Assembly: GCF_003044305.1 (NCBI RefSeq)
Contig: NZ_PZOX01000005.1
Span: forward strand, 387,493 to 451,492
Direction of reading: 5' to 3'
From: Vitiosangium sp. GDMCC 1.1324
GTDB lineage: Bacteria; Myxococcota; Myxococcia; Myxococcales; Myxococcaceae
Length of the DNA: 64,000 nucleotides
Part shown: in pieces, positions 1,915-12,669 of the stretch
Layout: each line of letters starts with the position of its first letter
Numbering within the stretch: the first letter of the stretch is position 1
Program-made: the position numbers and the translations under genes
The notes under the pieces: model-generated
The model's input: the letters and a program-made list of their open reading frames with translations, nothing else
What the model was told of the DNA's origin: nothing
The model's database searches: none

Positions 1915-3546
1915 ATGCTGCTGGGGGTGCTCGCGGCCTGCGCGAGCCCGGGGTCGCTCGAGAAGGGCGACAAGGGCGGACTCGTGTCCGTGAAGGTGGA
2001 TGAGACCGCGCTCTCGGAGGCCTATGCGCCCCGGAGGCTGGCCCTGCTGGTGGGCGTGTCGCAGTTCCAGGACGCGCAGTGGAGAGACCTGCGCTACTCC
2101 TCCAAGGACGCGGAGGACCTGGCCGCGGCGCTGAGGGATCCGGCGCGCGGCCACTTCGACCAGGTGCGCGTCCTCACCCGCCCCGAGGAGACGACCCGGG
2201 CCGCCATCCTCGGCGCGCTCCGCCAGTTGAAGCAGGAGGCCTCGCGGCCGGATGACGTGGTGGTGGTGTACTTCTCCGCGCACGGGACGCTGGCCCGCGA
2301 TAGCAAGGGCGAGCTCAAGCGCTACCTGGTGACCGCCGACGCCGCGTACCGCGCCATTCCCCAGACAGCGCTGTCCATGGACGTGCTGAAGGCCGAGTTC
2401 GACCAACTCCCCTCGCGCCGCCGGCTGATGGTGCTGGCCACCTGTCACAGCGGCAGTGGCAAGTCGCTGCTGCCCCGCGAGCTGGAGGCCGAGCTGGCGG
2501 GGATCAAGGCCGGCTTCTACGCGCGGCCCATCGAGGAGTCGAGCCGGGCCTCCATGGTGTTCGCCGCCTGCGACTGGGGCGAGACGGCCCGAGAGGACGA
2601 GGGACTGAAGAACGACATCTACACCCACTTCCTCATCGACGGGCTGAACGGCGCCGCGGATCGCAACATCGACGGGGCCGTCACGGCCACCGAGGCCCAT
2701 GACTACGCGCGCCGCCGCACCTACGCCTTCACCGAGGGGCGGCAGCGGCCCTCGGCGGAGATCCTGGAGGTGGGCGCGGATCCGGTGGTGCTCTCGGGCC
2801 GGATCGACCGGACGGGCCGCCCGGAGCTCTTCTCGTACAACCCCCGGCTGGACGGCTTCACGCTGAAGGTGGACGGAGAGACGCGCACGGAGCTGCCCGG
2901 AGGCGCCGCCGTGACGCCCGGCCGCCGCACCGTGGAGCTCACCAAGGGGGATGACATCCTCATCCGTGAGGTGGTGGACATCTCCGCGGGCGAGCGGCTG
3001 CCGCTGGAGCGCCTGCTGACCCAGGCCTTCCCCCACCGCTCGCTGGCGCTCATGGGCGGCATGTTCTCCTTCGTGGACGCGCGCAGCCGCAACGAGCTGC
3101 TGCCCGCCGCACCGGAGCTGGCGGTGGTGCTGCGGCTGGAGGAGCGCCCGCTGCCGGACCTGAGCCTCCTCTTCGACGTGAGCGGGAGCCGGGGCCATCG
3201 GAGCCTCCAGCTGACACCTGGCAACAGCGTGCCCTTCATCTACACCTCGCTGTCGCTGGGGGCCGCGGTGCCCTACACGTGGCGGTGGCAGCGCCTGTCG
3301 CTCTACGCGGGCCCACGTGTGGCCGCTCTGCTCCTCCAGCGGTCCTTCCAGACAGAGGCCTTTACCGGGGCACAGCAGTACTTCACCGTCAGCCCGGGCG
3401 TGGTGGGAGGTGTGGTGTGGCGGCTGAACGAGCGGCTGGAGCTGACATCGCAGCTGCAGATGATGGTGACGTACGTGGTGGTGGACGGGCGGGGGCAGGC
3501 CGTGGGTTTCACCGGCGGATGGGCCGGCATGGGGTACCGCTTCTGA
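1915..3546 (+). CDS. caspase-family (peptidase C14) lipoprotein
   Basis: Signal plus lipobox (LLGVLAAC). The caspase-like domain spans LLVGVSQFQD...VVVVYFSAHG...MVLATCHSGSG with a His/Cys dyad context. The C-terminus ends ...GMGYRF, beta-barrel-like. The start codon is uncertain. Confidence 0.7.
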   Translation: MLLGVLAACASPGSLEKGDKGGLVSVKVDETALSEAYAPRRLALLVGVSQFQDAQWRDLRYSSKDAEDLAAALRDPARGHFDQVRVLTRPEETTRAAILGALRQLKQEASRPDDVVVVYFSAHGTLARDSKGELKRYLVTADAAYRAIPQTALSMDVLKAEFDQLPSRRRLMVLATCHSGSGKSLLPRELEAELAGIKAGFYARPIEESSRASMVFAACDWGETAREDEGLKNDIYTHFLIDGLNGAADRNIDGAVTATEAHDYARRRTYAFTEGRQRPSAEILEVGADPVVLSGRIDRTGRPELFSYNPRLDGFTLKVDGETRTELPGGAAVTPGRRTVELTKGDDILIREVVDISAGERLPLERLLTQAFPHRSLALMGGMFSFVDARSRNELLPAAPELAVVLRLEERPLPDLSLLFDVSGSRGHRSLQLTPGNSVPFIYTSLSLGAAVPYTWRWQRLSLYAGPRVAALLLQRSFQTEAFTGAQQYFTVSPGVVGGVVWRLNERLELTSQLQMMVTYVVVDGRGQAVGFTGGWAGMGYRF

Positions 3547-4720: not shown

Positions 4721-7171
4721 ATGTGGAAGAAAACCTGGCTACTCGGCATCCTGATGGCAGCGACCGCGCTGTCTGGCTGTTCCTCCTGCGGCGACAAGCC
4801 CGGTGGGGGCGGTAATACGGTGGATGGCGGAGATGGCGGCGGCGGCTCACAAAACGATGGAGGCGGCGGCTCTACCGACGGCGGCGGCGGCTCTACCGAC
4901 GGCGGCGGCGGCGGTTCTACCGATGGCGGCGGCGGCGGTTCTACCGATGGCGGCTCCACTGACGGAGGAGGAGGCGGCAGCCCCACGCTGGGCTCCCTGA
5001 CGATTTCTCCCACCAACCCGACCCTCGCTGTCACGGGCAGCACAGGCGTCCTCCAGGCCTTCACGGTGAGGGGGACCTTCACCGACGGGCACACGGAGGA
5101 CATGACGAGCCGGTCCAGCTTCAGCATCGACGATACGCGGCTGGGCACCTTCGGCGGAGCGAGCTTCACCTCGAGCACCACCGTCGGCGGCGCCAGCACC
5201 GTGCGTGCCCGGGTGGGCACCATGTCCGTCTCCACCCCCATCACGGTGCGGCTCGACCAGAAGGTGTCGGACACGCCTCCGGCCGGCAGCACGAGCACCA
5301 CGCCCGTGCCCGCCGATCCGGGCTCGAAGTTCGGCGGCACGGTGGACACCTCGTACAAACCGCAGATCGTCTACCCCAACAATGGCGTCCTGGTGCCGCC
5401 CAACCTCGGGCAGTTGGAGATCCACTTCCTGCCGAACAACGCCTCCACCTCGCTGTTCGAGCTCGCCTTCTCCAACAGCATCACCAACGTGCGCGTGTAC
5501 ATGCGCTGCTACCTGCCGTCGGGCTTCACCCTGCCCTCGGGAGTGAGCCGCGGTTGCATCTACACGCCCGAGGACAAGGTGTGGAAGTTCCTGGCCGAGA
5601 GCAACCGTGGCGGCCAGCCGGTGAAGGTCACCGTGCGCTCCACGGACGACTCGGGTTCTGGCACGGTGGGCGTGTCCGATCCCATCGCCATCCAGTTCGC
5701 CCGCGCCGAAATCAAGGGCGCGCTCTACTACTGGACCACCTCGGGTGGCACCGGCGTGATGCGCTACGACTTCGCCGGCGGCACGGGCACGCAGACGGCC
5801 TCGCCCGTACTGAGGGCCAGCAACATCAGCACCAGCGTGAGCTGCGTGGGCTGCCACGCGCTGAGCCGCAACGGCAAGAAGCTGGTGGCCGAGGTCAATG
5901 GCCAGAACGACGGCCGGCTCGCCCTGGTGGACCTGTCCACCTTCAAGAGCACCGACAAGATCCCCCTGTCGCAGGGTGGCGTGAAGCTGAGCAACTTCGA
6001 GTCGTGGAACCCGGACGGCACCAAGTTCGTCGGCGTCTACGCCGATAGCGGCACCTCCCGCTACTCCCTGCAGATCTTCAACGGCGACACGGCGGCCTTC
6101 GAGTCGGAGATCCCCAACAGCGGCGACTCCACCAACCCCGCCAACCACCCGGACTGGAGCCCGGATGGCCAGACGATCGCCTACATGTCCATGAGCAACA
6201 TCGGCTCGAGGACGAACCAGCGCAGCTGGATGGGCACCATCAAGATGGTGACGGCGAAGACGGGCGGCGGCTGGAACGCCCCGGTGACGGTGGTGGCTCC
6301 CGAGACCTACAAGAACCGGTACTACCCGGCCATCGCGCCCGACAACTCCTTCCTCGTCTACAACGAGTCCCTCTGCGTCACCGCCGATACGGACAAGAAC
6401 TGCAACGGCGATACGGACCCGTCCGCCCGGCTGTGGGCCGCGAAGCTGCAAGCCGGCGCCCAGCGGGTGGAGCTGGCCAAGGCCAACGAGGGCGGTGTGA
6501 TGGACAAGGGCGAGACGAAGCTGACCAACAGCTACCCGAAGTGGAGCCCCTTCGTGACGCGCGGCAACTCGGGCGACACCAGCCGGCTGATGTGGGTGAC
6601 GTTCTCCTCCTCGCGCAAGTACGGCCTGCGCGTGCCCATCACCACCGGAGGCGATGAGAACCCCAGCGGCACCCTGCTGTGGATGGCGGCGGTGGATCCC
6701 GACAAGGTGAGCGCGGGAGTGGATCCGTCCTACGCGTCCTTCGCCCTGCCCTTCCAGGACCTCAGCACCTCCAACCACATCGCCCAGTGGGCCCAGTACC
6801 TCGTGAGCAACGGGTGCTCCACGGTGGGCGAGGGGTGTAACTCGAGCGGTTCCACCTGCTGCAACGGCCTGCAGTGCGTGCAGACCAGCTACGATCCGCC
6901 CATCCCCTGCGACGTGGCCGGCGCCTGCGTGTGCCAGGCCATCCCGCAGTGCGCGCCGTCGTTCGAGAAGTGCTCGTCCGTCGCGCCCTGCTGCGACGGT
7001 CTGAGCTGCGTGGATGACTCCACCGGTGGCGCGTGCAGCGGCCCCAACTGCACCTGCAAGCCGCCGTGCTCCAACGTCAACCAGCCGTGCGGCGGCGCCT
7101 CGGCCTGCTGCGACGGTCTGCGGTGCACGGATACCTCGAGCGGCAGCGTCTGCCGGATCATCATCGAGTAG
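4721..7171 (+). CDS. large lipoprotein: Gly-rich STDGGGG repeats, Ig-like domain, TolB-like beta-propeller, C-terminal Cys-rich repeats
   Basis: Lipobox LSGCSSC. Has (GGGGSTD)n, a Big-like segment LTISPTNPTLAVTGS..., and WD40/TolB-like DWSPDGQTIAY / YPKWSP motifs. Three C-terminal CCNGLQC / CCDGLSC / CCDGLRC modules. Confidence 0.8.
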   Translation: MWKKTWLLGILMAATALSGCSSCGDKPGGGGNTVDGGDGGGGSQNDGGGGSTDGGGGSTDGGGGGSTDGGGGGSTDGGSTDGGGGGSPTLGSLTISPTNPTLAVTGSTGVLQAFTVRGTFTDGHTEDMTSRSSFSIDDTRLGTFGGASFTSSTTVGGASTVRARVGTMSVSTPITVRLDQKVSDTPPAGSTSTTPVPADPGSKFGGTVDTSYKPQIVYPNNGVLVPPNLGQLEIHFLPNNASTSLFELAFSNSITNVRVYMRCYLPSGFTLPSGVSRGCIYTPEDKVWKFLAESNRGGQPVKVTVRSTDDSGSGTVGVSDPIAIQFARAEIKGALYYWTTSGGTGVMRYDFAGGTGTQTASPVLRASNISTSVSCVGCHALSRNGKKLVAEVNGQNDGRLALVDLSTFKSTDKIPLSQGGVKLSNFESWNPDGTKFVGVYADSGTSRYSLQIFNGDTAAFESEIPNSGDSTNPANHPDWSPDGQTIAYMSMSNIGSRTNQRSWMGTIKMVTAKTGGGWNAPVTVVAPETYKNRYYPAIAPDNSFLVYNESLCVTADTDKNCNGDTDPSARLWAAKLQAGAQRVELAKANEGGVMDKGETKLTNSYPKWSPFVTRGNSGDTSRLMWVTFSSSRKYGLRVPITTGGDENPSGTLLWMAAVDPDKVSAGVDPSYASFALPFQDLSTSNHIAQWAQYLVSNGCSTVGEGCNSSGSTCCNGLQCVQTSYDPPIPCDVAGACVCQAIPQCAPSFEKCSSVAPCCDGLSCVDDSTGGACSGPNCTCKPPCSNVNQPCGGASACCDGLRCTDTSSGSVCRIIIE
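4855..4966 (+). repeat. in-frame tandem nucleotide repeat (21-24 bp units) encoding (G4-5 S T D)n
   Basis: ggcggcggcggctctaccgac occurs twice, ggcggcggcggcggttctaccgat twice, plus degenerate copies. Confidence 0.8.
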
Positions 7172-7187
7172 CCGCACCCGCCGCGGC

Positions 7188-7209
7188 GGCTCCGGTCCAC
7201 GCCGGAGCC
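7188..7209. terminator. GC hairpin between convergent genes (ggctccgg-tccacg-ccggagcc)
   Basis: 8-bp perfect stem located 17 nt after the TAG of the 4721..7171 gene. No clear U-tract. Confidence 0.35.
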
Positions 7210-7222
7210 GCCCGGTGAAGTC

Positions 7223-7942
7223 TCAAGGCGACAGGACGAGGCCGTCCGCCACGCACGACTCCACCGCGGCGCGGATGTCCGCCTCGGCCACGCTGGTCGC
7301 CTCCGCCACCTGAGGCGGCGTCAGTCCCTCCACCGCCATCTTCAACGCCAGCAGCGAACGATCGTTCGCTGACAGGTACATCGTCACCAGCCGCTCGGGG
7401 TGCCGCCACAGCAGCGCCATCTCCTGCCCCGGCTCCGGTCGCGCCCTCCGCTCCTTCGCCCGTACGTACGCGCAGAGCTGGAAGGGGTGCTCCAACACCA
7501 CCAGCGTCGGGTTCACCGTCAGCCGCTCCACCTTCTCCGGCACCGGCTCCATCGACGTGTACACGGCGAAGTCCGCCCACTCGAAGCGAGCCAGCGAGGG
7601 CAGGAAGTCCGGCAGGCCGCGCCGCTCCGCCTCGTCCGCGAGGAAGCCCGGAAAGCCCTCGCCCAGGTGGTTCATCTCGTAGGGACGCGAGGGCCTGGAC
7701 GCCTCGTAGGCCCGCCCCAGTTCCGCCCACAACGCCTCGTCCACGCACGCACGCGTCAGCGGGTAGAGCTTGTCCAGCGTGGACCTGCCGTGGTGGGCCA
7801 CCATCCGGCCGTAGAGCTCCACGCGCGAGCGCGGTGCGTCCCAGCCCGGGTGCGCCGCGTACAGCCGTTCCAGTGCGTCCGGGCCCGGGGTGAGGAAGAA
7901 CTCCGTCATCGAATCGAAGAAGCCGCGCAGCCCGGGTTTCAT
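7223..7942 (-). CDS. DUF2063 domain protein, MNIO partner subunit (BufC/MbnC-like)
   Basis: LERLYAAHPGWDAPRSRVELYGRMVAHH...PYEMNHLGEGFPGFL...LPDFLPSLARFEWADF matches the DUF2063 signature. The start ATG overlaps the DUF692 stop (ATGA). Confidence 0.8.
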   Translation of the reverse strand: MKPGLRGFFDSMTEFFLTPGPDALERLYAAHPGWDAPRSRVELYGRMVAHHGRSTLDKLYPLTRACVDEALWAELGRAYEASRPSRPYEMNHLGEGFPGFLADEAERRGLPDFLPSLARFEWADFAVYTSMEPVPEKVERLTVNPTLVVLEHPFQLCAYVRAKERRARPEPGQEMALLWRHPERLVTMYLSANDRSLLALKMAVEGLTPPQVAEATSVAEADIRAAVESCVADGLVLSP

Positions 7943-8787
7943 CGCGACTCCACCTCCGCCAGCACCGCGCGAGCCCGGTCCGCCTCGTCCAGCACGGCCT
8001 CCAACGAGGGAATGTCCTGATCCCATTCGATGAGCGTCGACACCGGCCCCGTGCGCTCCAGCACGTAGCGGTACAGCGACCACACGTCGTCGCAAACCGC
8101 CGCCCCGTGCGTGTCGATGATGACGTCCGGCAGGCGCTCGTGCCCCGCCAGGTGGATCTGCACCACCCGCTCCAGCGGCAGCGCGTCCACGAAGGCCCGC
8201 GGGTCATACCCGTGGTTCTGCGAGTTCACGTACACGTTGTTCACGTCCAGCAGCAGGCCACAGTCCGCCTGCTCCGCCACGTGCCGCAGGAAGTCCGCCT
8301 CGTGCAGGGTGCCCCCCGGCATGCGCGCGTAGTAGCTCGGGTTCTCCAGCAGGAAGGGCCGGCCCACCCGCTCCTTCACCTCGCGCACCCGCGCCACCAC
8401 GTGCTCCACCGCCTCCTCCGAGAAGGGCAGCGGCAGCAGATCATAGAGGTACGCCCCGCCCAACCGCGTGTAGCACAGGTGGTCCGAGAAGAAGGGCGCG
8501 TCCACCCGCTCCACCAACGCCTTCAGCCGCGAGAGGTAGTCCTCGTCCAGCGGCTCGGGCCCGCCGATGTTCAGCGCCACCCCATGGGGCAACACCGGCC
8601 AGCGCTCCACGCACGCATCCAGCGCGCGCTGGGGACGGCCTCCGAGCGTGAGGAAGTTCTCCGGGATGATCTCCACCCAGTCCAGCGCACGGGAGGTCTC
8701 CGGGAGCTGCGCGTAGAACTCGCGCCGCAACCCGATGCCCGCTCCGAGCGGCTTCAATCCATGTCTGCGCGCGTAGCTCACTGACAC
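7939..8787 (-). CDS. DUF692/UPF0276 multinuclear non-heme iron oxidase (MNIO; MbnB/TglH/BufB family)
   Basis: LKPLGAGIGLRREFYAQL...WVEIIPENF...HGVALNIGG...FFSDHLCYTRLGG...FLLENPSYY...VQIHLAGH...DTHGAAV are TIM-barrel DUF692 hallmarks. GTG start at 8787 with a GAGGTG SD 5 nt upstream. Confidence 0.85.
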   Translation of the reverse strand: MSVSYARRHGLKPLGAGIGLRREFYAQLPETSRALDWVEIIPENFLTLGGRPQRALDACVERWPVLPHGVALNIGGPEPLDEDYLSRLKALVERVDAPFFSDHLCYTRLGGAYLYDLLPLPFSEEAVEHVVARVREVKERVGRPFLLENPSYYARMPGGTLHEADFLRHVAEQADCGLLLDVNNVYVNSQNHGYDPRAFVDALPLERVVQIHLAGHERLPDVIIDTHGAAVCDDVWSLYRYVLERTGPVSTLIEWDQDIPSLEAVLDEADRARAVLAEVESR

Positions 8788-8873
8788 GTCGGCACCTCGG
8801 GAAAAGACACGGGCGGCGGGAAGAGGCTCCCCACCGCCCGAAAGAGAACCCCGGGGATTCCGGGGGCTATCCC

Positions 8874-9128
8874 TTACTGCGGCTTGGCGGCGCCACAGCC
8901 GTCCTTGCCACAGCCGTGCTCGCTGCCCTTCTCGGAGGTGGAGGCGGCCTTGCCGCTGCACTTGGCCTCGCCGCCCTTCTCCTGGGTGGCCTCGGCGCCA
9001 CCCTTGCAGGACGCCTCGGTGCCCTTCGCCTCGGAGGTGGCGGCCGCGGGCTTCGCGGTCGCACAGCCGGTGGCCAGAGAGCCGAGGGACAGGGTACCGA
9101 CGATGGCTGCCATGGTCTTGACGTTCAT
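8874..9128 (-). CDS. small secreted Cys-containing peptide, candidate MNIO (bufferin-like) RiPP precursor
   Basis: 84 aa: MNVKTMAAIVGTLSLGSLATGCATAKPAAATSEAKGTEASCKGGAEATQEKGGEAKCSGKAASTSEKGSEHGCGKDGCGAAKPQ. Sec/lipoprotein-type signal (LATGC), then a K/E/G/A/S-rich core with three repeats carrying Cys (EASCKGG, EAKCSGK, EHGCGKDGCG). An AGGAAA SD lies 4 nt before the ATG. It sits immediately upstream of, and co-directional with, the MNIO. Confidence 0.6.
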   Translation of the reverse strand: MNVKTMAAIVGTLSLGSLATGCATAKPAAATSEAKGTEASCKGGAEATQEKGGEAKCSGKAASTSEKGSEHGCGKDGCGAAKPQ

Positions 9129-9139
9129 GGTGTTTCCTT

Positions 9140-10669
9140 TCACTGCGTGAGGGGTGGCAACTGCACGTGGCGAGGACTCCCATCGCGAGAGACGAAGGGG
9201 TCGCGGTCAGACATACGCGCTCCGAATTTCGCGGTTACAGGGCCTCGGCGCGCTCCTTCCAGGGCTTCCCGCACCTGGCTGTCACGCGCGGCACCGAGCC
9301 TCACTCCGTCCGGCCCGGGCTCCACGCCCAGCGCTTGTAACAGAGGCTCCACCCCGGCAAAAGCAGGCTGGGACAGGTGGCGCTCGAGCAACTCGTGGAA
9401 GAGCGACCGACCCGCGACGGCATCCACCGCCGCACCAAACTCGTCGAAAGTTGCGGTAGGGCCGGAACTGGCGAGCCGCTCGAGCACCTCGTCCAGGCTC
9501 CGCGTGTTGCCAGTAGCGCGGCGCAACTCCACGTCCACGAGCAGGGCGAAGAGAGCCCCCGTCCAATAGATGCCCTGGAAGGAGGCGCCGTGAGTCATGA
9601 CGTCCTCCATCGTCCGGGTGCCCACGGCGGCGCGCCCACGGGAGAAACCGGAGACCAGCTCCGCCCAGGCCTGCTCCGGCGTCTGCCTGCCTGAGCGCGC
9701 TCGCGCCAGCTCCGTGTAGTAGGTGGCCAGCCCCTCGGACAGCCAGGCGATGTGCGGCACGAAGGTGGGGTGCGCCAGGTGGAGGAGCTCGTGCACGGCC
9801 ACCCAGTCCCGCGGGAAGAACTCGGGCCCCGCCTCCTGGCCCACCAGCACGGAGACGCTCGGCGGCGAGCTCCACAGCACCATGCCGAAGACGGCGGGTG
9901 CCTGGCGTCCCGGCACTGGGATGACGCGCACGGTGATGCGTGGGTACGGGAAGTGGCGCCGCACCGTGAGCACCTCGCTCGCGGCCTGGTGGAGCCACGC
10001 GCAGAGGCCGGCGTCATCCATGCGCGACATGTGGCCGAGCACCGCCACTTCCATCACCGCGTCCGGTAGCCGCACCGTGCACCGCCGTCCGCCGAAGGCA
10101 TGGAAACCCGAGTCCACCAGATCTCCACCCTCCAGCCGGTAGACGCCGCTCGCATCCGGTTCCCACGGCAGCAGCGCGTCCACGCCCTCCACCACGAGCT
10201 CCGCGCGAAGCGAGGGCGATACCACGCGAGGGCGCAACAACCAGGCCCGGCCCGCCACATGCCACGAGTCCCCTTCGCCCATGCCGGAGGAGAAGTCCGG
10301 GCGCGCCCCCCGGACGCGAGCCTCCAAGGGATAGCGGTAACGCAACAGGCGCGTGTCCCGCGGGACGAGGACGCGGCCCTCCGGAGACACGGACAGCTCG
10401 TGGCCGGAACCTTCCGGGCCGAAGACACGCACCCGGTCGACTCCGCCAGGTTGGGTGAAGAGGAAGTCCCGGGGGGCATTCTCACCAACGAGGACGAGCT
10501 CCACGTCCAGCGCATGCACCGGCTCGCGGACATAGGTGACGCGGTAGCGCAGCGCCGTCGGATCCTCGCCCGGCCGAAGCGGAAGCGTCCGAGCCGGCTG
10601 GCACGCCCCCAACACCAACAGCAGGGACACCCGTACCGCGAAGGAGAGGACCGGCCTGGATGAAGGCAT
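9140..10669 (-). CDS. HExxH zinc metalloprotease lipoprotein (MA-clan, M61/aminopeptidase-like)
   Basis: Lipobox LLLVLGAC and HELLHLAHP...EGLATYY (HExxH + downstream Glu). Its stop is 11 nt upstream of the precursor ORF. The start coordinate follows the ORF-track frame. Confidence 0.65.
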   Translation of the reverse strand: MPSSRPVLSFAVRVSLLLVLGACQPARTLPLRPGEDPTALRYRVTYVREPVHALDVELVLVGENAPRDFLFTQPGGVDRVRVFGPEGSGHELSVSPEGRVLVPRDTRLLRYRYPLEARVRGARPDFSSGMGEGDSWHVAGRAWLLRPRVVSPSLRAELVVEGVDALLPWEPDASGVYRLEGGDLVDSGFHAFGGRRCTVRLPDAVMEVAVLGHMSRMDDAGLCAWLHQAASEVLTVRRHFPYPRITVRVIPVPGRQAPAVFGMVLWSSPPSVSVLVGQEAGPEFFPRDWVAVHELLHLAHPTFVPHIAWLSEGLATYYTELARARSGRQTPEQAWAELVSGFSRGRAAVGTRTMEDVMTHGASFQGIYWTGALFALLVDVELRRATGNTRSLDEVLERLASSGPTATFDEFGAAVDAVAGRSLFHELLERHLSQPAFAGVEPLLQALGVEPGPDGVRLGAARDSQVREALEGARRGPVTAKFGARMSDRDPFVSRDGSPRHVQLPPLTQ

Positions 10670-11106
10670 CACGCACCCCGCTGCCCGCAGAAACCCGGAC
10701 ACTCTATCGGCGCACTCATGGTGTGGCCGGGAGACGAATCGTGAGGTCACTCCCCTGCCCCCAGACCGGCAAGGCCACCGATCACCTTCCGGGTCTCTCC
10801 TCAACGGACTCGCCGCCCCCCGATTCCCCACCCCGTTGCTGGTAAACCGTAGCGGTAAAACTTTGACAGACCTTCTAGGGCATGGCCCGACAGGTCGCAG
10901 AGCTGTCCACCAAGCATTGTGAAATCAAACGGTTAGCCACTTCAGGACGGGTGGGGACGATCACCAGGCCCTCCCTCCGTTCCGTTGAGGACAGGGGCGG
11001 TTGCGCTCGAAAACGTTTATTGCAAATCGGTAAATGCCTCCGCACAGTGGCGTGTCGGAGGGGCCGGGTACTGGGGTAGAGGACCCCCCATCCAGGAAGC
11101 GCGGAG

Positions 11107-12669
11107 ATGAACGAGAACGCACTCAACGCGAACGTGGGCCTGAAGCTGCGCAGCCTGAGACTCGCGCGGAACATCAAGCAGACGGACGCGGCCAAGGACC
11201 TGGGAGTCTCCCCGGCGTACCTGAACCTCATCGAGAAGGGCAAGCGGGTCATGCCCTTCCCGCTGCTGTGGAAGGCCCTGCGCTACTTCGACCAGGACCC
11301 CGAGCAGTTCATGTCCACGCTGGGCGAGGGCCGGGTGGACGAGGCGCTCGCGAAGCTGCTGGACGAGCCGCTGCTCAAGAGCCTCGACATCGATCCGGAG
11401 TCGCTGCAGAGCCTGTCGGCGGAGCCGAAGCTGGCGGGCACGGTGGCGGCGCTCTTCAACCTCTACAAGAACACGCGCACGCAACTGGAGAACGTGCTGG
11501 CGCAGCTCAACGCCGAGGAGCGGGCGCGCACGCAGTCGGTGCCGGGCAGCTCGGCGGGGCCGGGCCTGCGCTTCGACTACTCGCCCTTCGACGAGGTGAG
11601 TGACTTCCTGCAGTCGCACCACAACTACTTCCCCGAGCTGGAGGAGCAGGCCGAGGCGCTGCGGCGCGACTTCAAGCTGGGGCGCCTGCTCACCAGCCCG
11701 CAGTTGGTGCCGCTGCTGGAGGAGCGCTTCGGCTACCGCGTGCGCTTCGAGTCCGCGGTCAGCGGCTCCTCGGTGGTGCGCCGGTTCGATCCCGAGTCCC
11801 AGGAGCTCATCCTCTCGCCGGACCTGATGGAGCAGCCGCTCAAGTTCCAGCTCGCGACGTCCATCGGCCTGCTGGTGCTGGACCGGGAGAAGCTGGTGGA
11901 GCGCATCGTCGGTGCGGCGCGCACGCGGCACGCGGAGACGCTGCGCCTCATCAAGGTGAACCTGGCCAACTACTTCGCCGGCGCGCTGATGCTGCCCTAC
12001 GGGGACTTCTTCAAGGAGGTGGAGCGCACGCGCTACGACGTGGAGCTGCTCTCCAACCTCTTCGGCACCACGTACGAGACGGTGGCCCACCGGCTGTGCA
12101 ACCTGTCGGACCCCAAGCGCAAGGGCCTGCCCTTCCACTTCCTGCGCTCGGACATCGCCGGCAACATCTCCAAGCGCTACAGCGGCACCGGCATCAAGTT
12201 CGCCACGGGCGGCGGCTCATGCGGCAAGTGGGCCGTGCACCTGGCCTTCCTCAACCCGTCCCAGCTCACCCGGCAGTATTCGATGATGCCGGACGGCACC
12301 TCGTACTTCTGCTTCGCGAAGGTGCAGCTGCAGCCGATTGAAGGCTCCATCGTGCGCGGCACGGCGTACTCCATCGGCCTGGGCACGCACGCGGAGAACG
12401 CCAAGTACCTGGCGTACGGCCTGCCCACCACGGATCTGCGCAAGGACGCGGTGCCCAGCGGCATCTCCTGCCGCTTCTGCGAGCGCACCGACTGCAACCA
12501 GCGCGCGGCCGCCAGCTACCGCTTCGCCTTCTCCTTCGACGAGTACACCAAGAAGGATTGCTTCTTCTCGCCCCTGCTCGTCCACGAGGCCGGCCGGGGT
12601 GGCGATCACCTGCGTGCGGATTCGCTGGACAAGCAGCCGCGCCGACGCAACAAGGGCGAGGAACACTGA
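11107..12669 (+). CDS. XRE-family transcriptional regulator, COG3800-type (HTH + ImmA/IrrE-like + DUF2083)
   Basis: N-terminal HTH (LRSLRLARNIKQTDAAKDLGVSPAYLNLIEKGKR) and a C-terminal region with CxxC...CxxC (CGKW...CRFCERTDC). Confidence 0.8.
   Translation: MNENALNANVGLKLRSLRLARNIKQTDAAKDLGVSPAYLNLIEKGKRVMPFPLLWKALRYFDQDPEQFMSTLGEGRVDEALAKLLDEPLLKSLDIDPESLQSLSAEPKLAGTVAALFNLYKNTRTQLENVLAQLNAEERARTQSVPGSSAGPGLRFDYSPFDEVSDFLQSHHNYFPELEEQAEALRRDFKLGRLLTSPQLVPLLEERFGYRVRFESAVSGSSVVRRFDPESQELILSPDLMEQPLKFQLATSIGLLVLDREKLVERIVGAARTRHAETLRLIKVNLANYFAGALMLPYGDFFKEVERTRYDVELLSNLFGTTYETVAHRLCNLSDPKRKGLPFHFLRSDIAGNISKRYSGTGIKFATGGGSCGKWAVHLAFLNPSQLTRQYSMMPDGTSYFCFAKVQLQPIEGSIVRGTAYSIGLGTHAENAKYLAYGLPTTDLRKDAVPSGISCRFCERTDCNQRAAASYRFAFSFDEYTKKDCFFSPLLVHEAGRGGDHLRADSLDKQPRRRNKGEEH

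Follow-up and report, generated by a model that had tools for sequence, protein, structure and literature searches.

A predicted lipoprotein-type, oxazolin-like MNIO substrate encoded next to its putative maturation enzymes in Vitiosangium sp. GDMCC 1.1324

The precursor gene and the adjacent enzyme genes

The subject of this report is a small gene in a 64,000-nt stretch of the genome of Vitiosangium sp. GDMCC 1.1324 (Archangiaceae, Myxococcota), contig NZ_PZOX01000005.1, positions 387,493 to 451,492, a stretch referred to below as the window. The gene is an open reading frame (ORF) of 84 codons plus a stop on the minus strand, 9128..8874, with its ATG at 9128 and a TAA at 8876..8874. Its product, MNVKTMAAIVGTLSLGSLATGCATAKPAAATSEAKGTEASCKGGAEATQEKGGEAKCSGKAASTSEKGSEHGCGKDGCGAAKPQ, carries Cys residues at positions 22 (in a lipobox), 41, 57, 73 and 78. 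Translation, homologues and synonymous fraction all suggest that it is a lipoprotein-type, oxazolin-like (captophorin-like) substrate of an MNIO enzyme. 'Captophorins' is the name given to a wider class that includes bufferins, oxazolin and fontiphorin (PMC13097082; bioRxiv 10.64898/2026.07.17.739211). Downstream on the same strand lie a gene for an MNIO (DUF692) maturase of 282 aa (7939..8787) and a gene for a DUF2063 partner (7223..7942), so that precursor, MNIO and DUF2063 follow one another in the A-B-C order of captophorin-type clusters. The locus also shares with such clusters an MNIO of the BufB/HvfB group and a precursor that combines a Sec-type signal with conserved Cys residues. There is no other candidate substrate ORF before the MNIO gene. 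Since Archangium and Cystobacter have a paralogue next to a type VI secretion system (T6SS), a second copy was sought by tblastn in the 64 kb, but only one peptide gene, one MNIO gene and one DUF2063 gene were found.

The preliminary description of this locus took the small ORF, with its good Shine-Dalgarno site, to be a gene, and this is borne out. A Shine-Dalgarno-like AAGGAAA can be read from the sequence at 9133..9139 on the minus strand, 5 nt 5' of the ATG, and the TGA stop of an upstream peptidase-like gene (9142..9140) lies immediately 5' of it. No sigma-70-like promoter was found in 7000..11200, and it is possible that the precursor gene is co-transcribed with the peptidase-like gene. 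When synonymous fractions were compared for the six frames across 16 orthologues, the sense frame ranked highest, at 0.53 against at most 0.37 elsewhere, and the reading frame is kept through many length changes in all 45 family members. The gene had also been called 'unannotated', which does not hold, as NCBI and UniRef contain an entry identical to the 84-aa precursor under the name 'hypothetical protein [Vitiosangium sp. GDMCC 1.1324]'. The GC content at third codon positions of the precursor frame, 0.91, can only be weak coding evidence because the plus-strand ORF at 8884..9150 has the same third codon positions; as an argument it was partly rejected and replaced by the counts of synonymous and nonsynonymous changes.

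A GC-rich genome does invite the view that the region is untranslated and the ORF an artefact of composition. Many frames stay open in such DNA, and two of the three antisense frames are without stops across the ORF span in 41/44 and 38/44 homologues, an openness that we attribute to the GC-rich composition. This view must contend, however, with the lead of the sense frame in synonymous fraction, with the fact that every length change among the homologues preserves the frame, with the Shine-Dalgarno site before the ATG and the NCBI annotation, and with a lipoprotein signal that is kept in the protein despite synonymous changes in the DNA. We regard the chance that it is correct as vanishingly small. 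Two long plus-strand ORFs that cover the precursor gene, 8884-9150 and 8916-9569, appear to be GC-rich artefacts, with synonymous fractions below that of the sense frame.

The MNIO assignment comes from Pfam, NCBIfam and PDB matches. The protein scores 356.6 bits on Pfam PF05114 and 213.6 bits against PDB entry 3BWW. On the NCBIfam model NF050167 MNIO_BufB it reaches 331 bits and passes the cutoff of 310, whereas on the HvfB model it reaches 303.8 bits, below the cutoff of 360, and it falls far under the cutoffs of the MbnB, ApyH and ChrH models. An Arg-Arg pair that has been proposed to bind the Glu at position -3 of substrates is retained. In 34/35 myxobacterial MNIO orthologues a Gln follows the putative catalytic Asp (EWDQ; window MNIO residues 254-258), while the HvfB-like structure 3BWW has Phe (ERDF) at this position. 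MNIOs of the Cys-Lys type are reported to have Asp at the selectivity position and those of the Lys-Cys type have Phe; the Gln may be a clade-specific feature of substrate selectivity.

The DUF2063 partner is BufC/HvfC-like and probably binds the substrate. The ATG of its gene overlaps the stop of the MNIO gene (ATGA). It scores 43.8 bits on Pfam PF09836, against a cutoff of 27.2, and 53.5 bits on NCBIfam HvfC, below the cutoff of 142; a PDB sequence search with this protein gave no match at E <= 0.01. A higher score, 70 bits, is obtained on the N-terminal region (profile positions 2-172) of the NCBIfam model TIGR04082, which represents SbtM, a thio(seleno)oxazole radical-SAM maturase. This match suggests that a substrate-binding domain is common to two thiooxazole-related pathways.

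Signal peptide, core and homologous loci

Relatives of the precursor can be found both as proteins and as loci. A protein search of a 5.8-billion-sequence database returned 47 relatives, the closest of which, after the identical entry, is 84% identical. A genome scan gave 39 loci, every one of them from Myxococcota (Archangium, Hyalangium, Citreicoccus, Pyxidicoccus, Corallococcus, Myxococcus and Cystobacter), and contig look-ups added Melittangium. The precursor has also been listed before. Supplement 1 of a preprint (PMC12636315) gives predicted MNIO-modified RiPP-lipoproteins (RiPP, a peptide made by the ribosome and modified after translation), filtered by SignalP 6.0 for signal peptidase II (SPII) signals, and under its Cluster III, 'Oxazolin-like', stands MNVKTLMAIVGTLSLGSALATGCATAKPAAATSEAKGTEASCKGGAEATQEKGGAEKCSGKAASTSEKGSEHGCGKDGCGAAKPQ, which matches the precursor at 80/85 aligned positions. 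The mismatches look like errors of machine reading of the PDF, since neighbouring rows (P0043/L007 and the P0045 group) deviate in a like manner from the proteins that were retrieved. Given errors of this kind, and a next-closest protein that is only 84% identical, the sequence is regarded as already catalogued.

The lipobox is the most constant element of the family. Residues 1-21 form a predicted lipoprotein signal peptide that, together with the putative lipidation site Cys22, is encoded at 9063..9128 (minus strand); it has Lys4 in the n-region, no charge from residue 11 to residue 21 and a Cys at 22. Its lipobox, L18-A19-T20-G21-C22 (LATG-C22), is encoded at 9077..9063, and L-A-[TAQS]-G-C is found in 45/45 family members. 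In an alignment of 47 sequences, 11 positions are invariant, namely M1, N2, K4, G11, L13, S14, L15, L18, G21, C22 and A23. Synonymous changes outnumber nonsynonymous ones in the signal-peptide codons (for example, 8 vs 2 against L010), and in the core the reverse is seen. Several homologues carry the UniRef name 'Lipoprotein'. The preliminary description had proposed two fates for the signal peptide, of which the lipobox is upheld and the signal peptidase I (SPase I) site ATA-K26 is not, as other members have AST-K, ASN-K, ATS-S or ATT-H in its place. With a predicted SPII signal, a lipobox Cys before the RiPP core and a location in a RiPP cluster, the precursor has the sequence and cluster features of the lipidated peptides known as DAG-RiPPs. 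A signal peptide that is far more conserved than the core is unusual, and it may point to some additional function, in recognition or in sorting.

In the core, units of the form KG-x-E-xx-C recur every 16 residues exactly, with starts at residues 35, 51 and 67, and three such units were reached in 0 of 200,000 shuffles of the core (regular-expression and shuffle test). Unit 1, K35-G-T-E-A-S-C41, with Lys after the Cys, is encoded at 9006..9026, and unit 2, K51-G-G-E-A-K-C57, with Ser after the Cys, at 8958..8978, both on the minus strand; both vary across the family. Unit 3 and the terminal pair, K67-G-S-E-H-G-C73-G-K-D-G-C78-G79 (8892..8930, minus strand), would be the main site for MNIO modification and Cu(I) binding as predicted from conservation. 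C73, G74 and C78 are conserved at >=90% in the 47-sequence alignment, and a C-x4-C, nearly always CG-x3-C, falls within the last 25 residues of 44/45 members, the exception being L006. Upstream KG-x-E-xx-C-like units number from 0 to 5 per member; the only family-wide elements are the lipobox and the C-terminal CG-x3-C pair. The triple Cys repeat on which the preliminary description had built is real in this peptide but is not the core of the family, and the conservation of Cys motifs that it proposed to look for near myxobacterial MNIO genes is seen for the C-terminal pair and not for the variable upstream units. Some members (L033; preprint Cluster III) carry canonical EGKCGEGKCGEGKCG (EGKCGEGKCG) tails behind the same signal peptide. 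Work on FonBC substrates has shown that two repeats and a small residue after the Cys are needed and that Cys-Lys is left unprocessed. As both are followed by Gly, Cys73 and Cys78 fit these rules and would be confident sites of modification; Cys57 (Cys-Ser) is a plausible site by the same rules, and Cys41 (Cys-Lys) a doubtful one.

MNIO and then DUF2063 directly follow the peptide gene in 40/43 distinct loci with enough downstream sequence, from the genera of the genome scan and Melittangium, and a DUF2063 gene stands after the MNIO gene in every locus where enough sequence is available. This linkage occurs in two genomic contexts, one with ScfRs-regulator, TPR and TauE genes, which is that of the window, and one adjacent to T6SS genes. 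In L006 (5001-5204, ENA metagenome contig k141_776106), the ScfRs regulator, TPR and TauE genes are kept but MNIO and DUF2063 are absent; its peptide retains the lipoprotein signal and has lost the C-terminal Cys pair, leaving a degenerate tail. L006 is the only member without the motif and the only syntenic locus without both enzymes. Though a single case, it looks like a natural co-loss that ties the motif to the enzymes, and together with the order kept in the 40 loci it backs the proposal that the ORF is the precursor for the adjacent MNIO.

Two intact paralogues with full Cys motifs, L023 (3501-3815) and L024 (3501-3785), have no adjacent MNIO; modification of their peptides in trans is a possibility. 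The gene after L023 is for a Ser/Thr kinase. L024, from Hyalangium versicolor, is followed by ExbB/TolQ- and TonB-like genes, as read from ORF translations, and the same genome has a complete cluster at L019. A paralogous peptide-MNIO-DUF2063 cluster stands by T6SS genes (TssF, TssG, VgrG, DUF4280) in Archangium violaceum (L002) and Cystobacter ferrugineus (L004). L018, L026 and L030 have the LAAGC lipobox, GGR tail and 0-20-nt spacer seen in L002 and L004, and the peptides of all five are of greater length and have GEASCGEGSCSG repeats that contain 6-10 core Cys.

Two tandem terminator-like hairpins separate the precursor gene from the MNIO gene (8800..8865, minus strand), one at 8865..8849 with a stem of 6 bp and one at 8840..8810 with a stem of 14 bp, each with a T-rich tail. 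The region has a fold energy of -50.2 kcal/mol (z = -3.3), and nothing in Rfam matched it when 7000..11200 was scanned. The second hairpin (CGGGCGG...CCGCCCG followed by GTGTYKTTT) is found in 35/35 primary-type loci, the window included, representing 33 distinct sequences (the loci named are L001, L003, L005, L007-L022, L025, L027-L036 and L040-L047, with window 8800-8865). The base of its stem is invariant, and some compensatory changes occur in the upper stem (at one pair, in 6 sequences). In the paralogous clusters next to T6SS genes there is no such hairpin, and the spacers are of 0-20 nt. The hairpin is probably an attenuator that raises the level of the precursor transcript over that of the enzymes.

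Other genes frame the cluster. Upstream, at 9140-10666 on the minus strand, is a gene for a predicted lipoprotein metallopeptidase of 508 aa with an HELLH motif, an N-terminus reading ...LLVLGAC and a weak match to Peptidase_M61 (18.3 bits, below the cutoff of 22); it ends 12 nt before the precursor ATG. M61-like homologues lie 5' of the peptide in most primary-type loci. As a core component the M61-like peptidase was rejected, as it is absent in Melittangium (L003), in L005, in L047 and in all T6SS-adjacent paralogues. In Corallococcus coralloides (L031), a YceI-like gene (2805-3437; Pfam 86 bits) sits between the M61-like and peptide genes, and other Myxococcaceae and Hyalangium loci have a similar gap of ~800 nt; a YceI gene has been described in a Legionella bufferin cluster (Antoine et al.). 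Downstream and convergent, at 4721-7171 on the plus strand, is a gene for a predicted lipoprotein of 816 aa with a PD40/beta-propeller match, an N-terminal GGGGSTDGGGG low-complexity region and C-terminal Cys-rich modules of ~35 aa each. This gene is kept 3' of the cluster in L001, L003 and L005, and one homologue has a faint Toxin_12 match.

Interpretation and alternatives

A characterised relative of such systems is HvfA of H. influenzae, which has three AEGKCGEGKCG motifs whose six Cys all lose 4 Da through the action of HvfB and HvfC. The signal peptide of HvfA is dispensable for this modification, and modified HvfA binds Cu(I), which its authors read as pairs of modifications that each hold about one Cu(I) (PMC11252979). 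The structure of the modified residue has since been revised to 5-thiooxazole (PMC13097082; bioRxiv 10.64898/2026.07.17.739211), and Gadgil et al. argued that MNIOs with DUF2063-type (PME1) partners broadly install 5-thiooxazoles (PMC13097082). Lipid anchors have been described as well. Lipoprotein signals occur in about 16% of Buf2 bufferins (Antoine et al., PMC12452194), and the van der Donk laboratory found triacylation of DybA and of the oxazolin-like NedA via the lipoprotein pathway after MNIO modification, naming such products 'DAG-RiPPs' (PMC13056109). NedA, whose sequence contains a lipobox as well as EGKCG motifs, was isolated in triacylated form and with a mass lower by 12 Da; DybA and NedA are the only DAG-RiPPs for which the acylated N-terminal Cys has been demonstrated (PMC13056109). 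A lipid-anchored MNIO product is therefore not as unusual as the preliminary description had supposed.

On this basis, the ORF is quite probably the precursor ('A') gene in a RiPP operon of three genes and of bufferin/oxazolin ('captophorin') type, with a product that matures via the lipoprotein pathway. We are more confident of the narrower statement that the product carries a lipoprotein signal and is a substrate of the MNIO, and less confident of the exact chemistry and of the role of copper. In the mechanism that we infer, the 84-aa precursor would be made in excess over the enzymes, as the terminator-like hairpins between the genes suggest. In the cytoplasm, the core would be bound by MNIO and its DUF2063 partner, which would convert Cys residues by oxidation into 5-thiooxazoles, with a loss of 4 Da per Cys; going by homology, the sites of greatest certainty would be Cys73 and Cys78 of the E-x-x-C-G-x3-C-G tail, Cys41 and Cys57 (Glu at -3 in both) would be possible ones, and Cys22 would have to remain free during this step. 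After Sec export, Lgt would add diacylglycerol to Cys22, SPII (LspA) would cut between G21 and C22 and Lnt would N-acylate the new N-terminus, a sequence of events suggested by the invariant lipobox and the NedA precedent. The expected product is a triacylated peptide of 63 residues that a membrane would hold on its periplasmic or outer side. There, the thiooxazole pair could chelate Cu(I), at about one Cu per pair, and buffer copper at the envelope, as the Cu(I) binding of HvfA, bufferins and fontiphorin leads one to expect.

A number of observations weigh against this reading. The window peptide and its myxobacterial clade are known by prediction alone. The precursor has no Pfam match at E <= 1, hence no DUF2282, and matches no NCBIfam precursor model; the NCBIfam HvfA models NF050188 and NF050137 'KCGExKCG_twice' do not match it even at E <= 10, although canonical oxazolin, used as a control, scores 103.9 and 98.9 bits. 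Myxobacterial relatives, on the other hand, speak for the reading, as they reach 14.2 and 18.3 bits on the HvfA-repeat model, just below its cutoff of 19.5. Cys41 precedes Lys, and FonBC leaves a Cys so placed unprocessed, and the Gln in the window MNIO differs from both the Phe of Lys-Cys-type and the Asp of Cys-Lys-type enzymes, which together make the number of modified Cys uncertain. No DoxX gene lies nearby, though buf2-type clusters also lack one, and neither a copper gene nor a copper-responsive regulator was found among the Pfam-scanned neighbours or in the fetched neighbourhoods. To these can be added the two intact paralogues without an adjacent MNIO. The Pfam and NCBIfam scans rule out filing the precursor as HvfA or DUF2282; with a tail that resembles oxazolin and no match to the HvfA models, 'oxazolin-like' is the accurate label.

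Some of these points lend themselves to another reading, in which the peptide is lipidated and MNIO-modified but its chemistry or function is something other than Cu-binding 5-thiooxazoles, such as another Cys-derived modification, another metal, or a role in predation or outer-membrane vesicles. MNIOs catalyse diverse reactions, the Gln selectivity residue in 34/35 clade members is unlike both characterised types, copper genes are absent from the window and the fetched neighbourhoods, and paralogous clusters lie by T6SS genes and one orphan by ExbB/TonB. Against these stand an MNIO above the BufB equivalog cutoff, the argument of Gadgil et al. on MNIO and DUF2063-type (PME1) pairs, and a CG-x3-CG motif and Glu at -3 that fit known substrates, and we consider this reading unlikely. 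It is more improbable still that the modified precursor is cut by SPase I at ATA-K26 to give a soluble periplasmic peptide like HvfA or BufA, with Cys22 a mere part of the signal or an additional modification site. A23-T24-A25-K26 does obey the AxA rule, and the characterised HvfA and BufA1 use SPase I; but the AxA site varies among members in which L-A-x-G-C does not, the signal fits lipobox rules, the SignalP 6.0 filter of the preprint put the family among SPII substrates, and the 'Lipoprotein' names in UniRef point the same way.

A simpler idea is that the product is an ordinary small lipoprotein, not an MNIO substrate, and that its linkage to the enzymes is inherited synteny. The homologues all belong to a single order, in which common descent would be enough to account for the adjacency, and the two orphan copies show that an intact peptide gene can stand apart from an MNIO. 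This idea does not sit well with an adjacency kept in two independent contexts (ScfRs/TauE and T6SS), with the joint loss of motif and enzymes in L006, or with a tail that resembles known MNIO substrates in a locus that offers the MNIO no alternative substrate ORF, and we judge it very improbable. The captophorin-type operon with a lipidated product remains the preferred reading. Within it, the strict conservation of the signal peptide, which in at least eight genera is the best kept segment of the protein beside a fast-evolving core, could have a further meaning: this segment might also serve as a leader for the DUF2063 partner, or as a sorting signal to the cell surface or outer-membrane vesicles of these predatory bacteria, which we think unlikely. 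If it were true, the clade would be a functionally distinct branch, handling copper, for example, at the predator-prey interface and not simply buffering it in the periplasm; the Gln selectivity residue, the E-x-x-C units with their 16-residue period and the conserved attenuator hairpin would be in keeping with a branch of this kind.

The gene is real, its biology appears to have been read correctly in the preliminary description, and its product was already known at the level of prediction. Little here is conceptually new, as bufferins, oxazolins, 'captophorins' and lipidated DAG-RiPPs were described in 2024-2026 and the sequence stands in a published list of predictions. The value of the analysis is confirmatory and lies in the invariant lipobox, the single conserved CG-x3-C pair, the co-loss of motif and enzymes and the conserved hairpin, all within one clade. 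As a minimal natural substrate, with one thiooxazole pair and a lipid anchor as predicted, the clade could help to test what number of thiooxazoles Cu(I) binding requires and to which sites lipopeptides of this kind are sorted.

Comparison with known systems

The bufferins (BufA1/DUF2282 and BufA2/BUF_6/12Cys; PMC11626156, PMC12452194) resemble the window system in an MNIO that passes the BufB cutoff, in the bufABC gene order and in the signal peptide of the precursor, and buf2 clusters share with the window locus the lack of DoxX. Bufferins are small folded proteins with 4 or 6 conserved Cys, whereas the core of the window peptide is predicted to be of low complexity and unstructured and has no DUF2282 match. 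The Buf2 group (BUF_6/12Cys) has 6 or 12 conserved Cys in a folded domain; the 4 Cys and low complexity of the window core argue against membership. The 'CxxxxC' precursors (Antoine et al. 2025) and the lipoprotein 'Cluster X' (PMC13056109) have a signal peptide, a C-x4-C and adjacent MNIO/DUF2063 genes, and the window motif C73-GKDG-C78 has the CxxxxC spacing. However, the preprint places the sequence in Cluster III and not in Cluster X, and 54% of CxxxxC clusters have a Lactamase_B_2 gene and many have DoxX, both absent at the window locus. In the portion of the supplement of Antoine et al. that was available, none of the myxobacterial genus names of this clade appears with the CxxxxC family.

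The likeness to oxazolin and HvfABC lies partly in the tail. AEGKCGEGKCG and SEHGCGKDGCG share the C-G-x3-C-G spacing and the Glu at -3 of the first Cys, and the two systems have in common an MNIO close to HvfB, a DUF2063 partner and an N-terminal Sec-type signal. HvfA uses SPase I, is soluble and carries its double motifs three times in tandem, each with Lys at -1, points in which the window peptide is predicted to differ. The window MNIO, moreover, is below the HvfB cutoff and has Gln, not Phe, after the catalytic Asp, and the window peptide fails both NCBIfam HvfA models.

NedA and NedBC of Neisseria dentiae (PMC13056109; PMC12636315) offer a further comparison. NedA comes from Pseudomonadota and the window peptide from a myxobacterium; NedA has three canonical EGKCG motifs, where the window peptide has one CG-x3-CG tail and two non-canonical E-x-x-C units; and the triacylation and lighter mass of NedA have been shown, while the window peptide is known from its sequence only. 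What the two systems share is an SPII signal in which the lipobox Cys is invariant, a low-complexity core that contains Cys-Gly, and genes for an MNIO and then a DUF2063 protein directly downstream.

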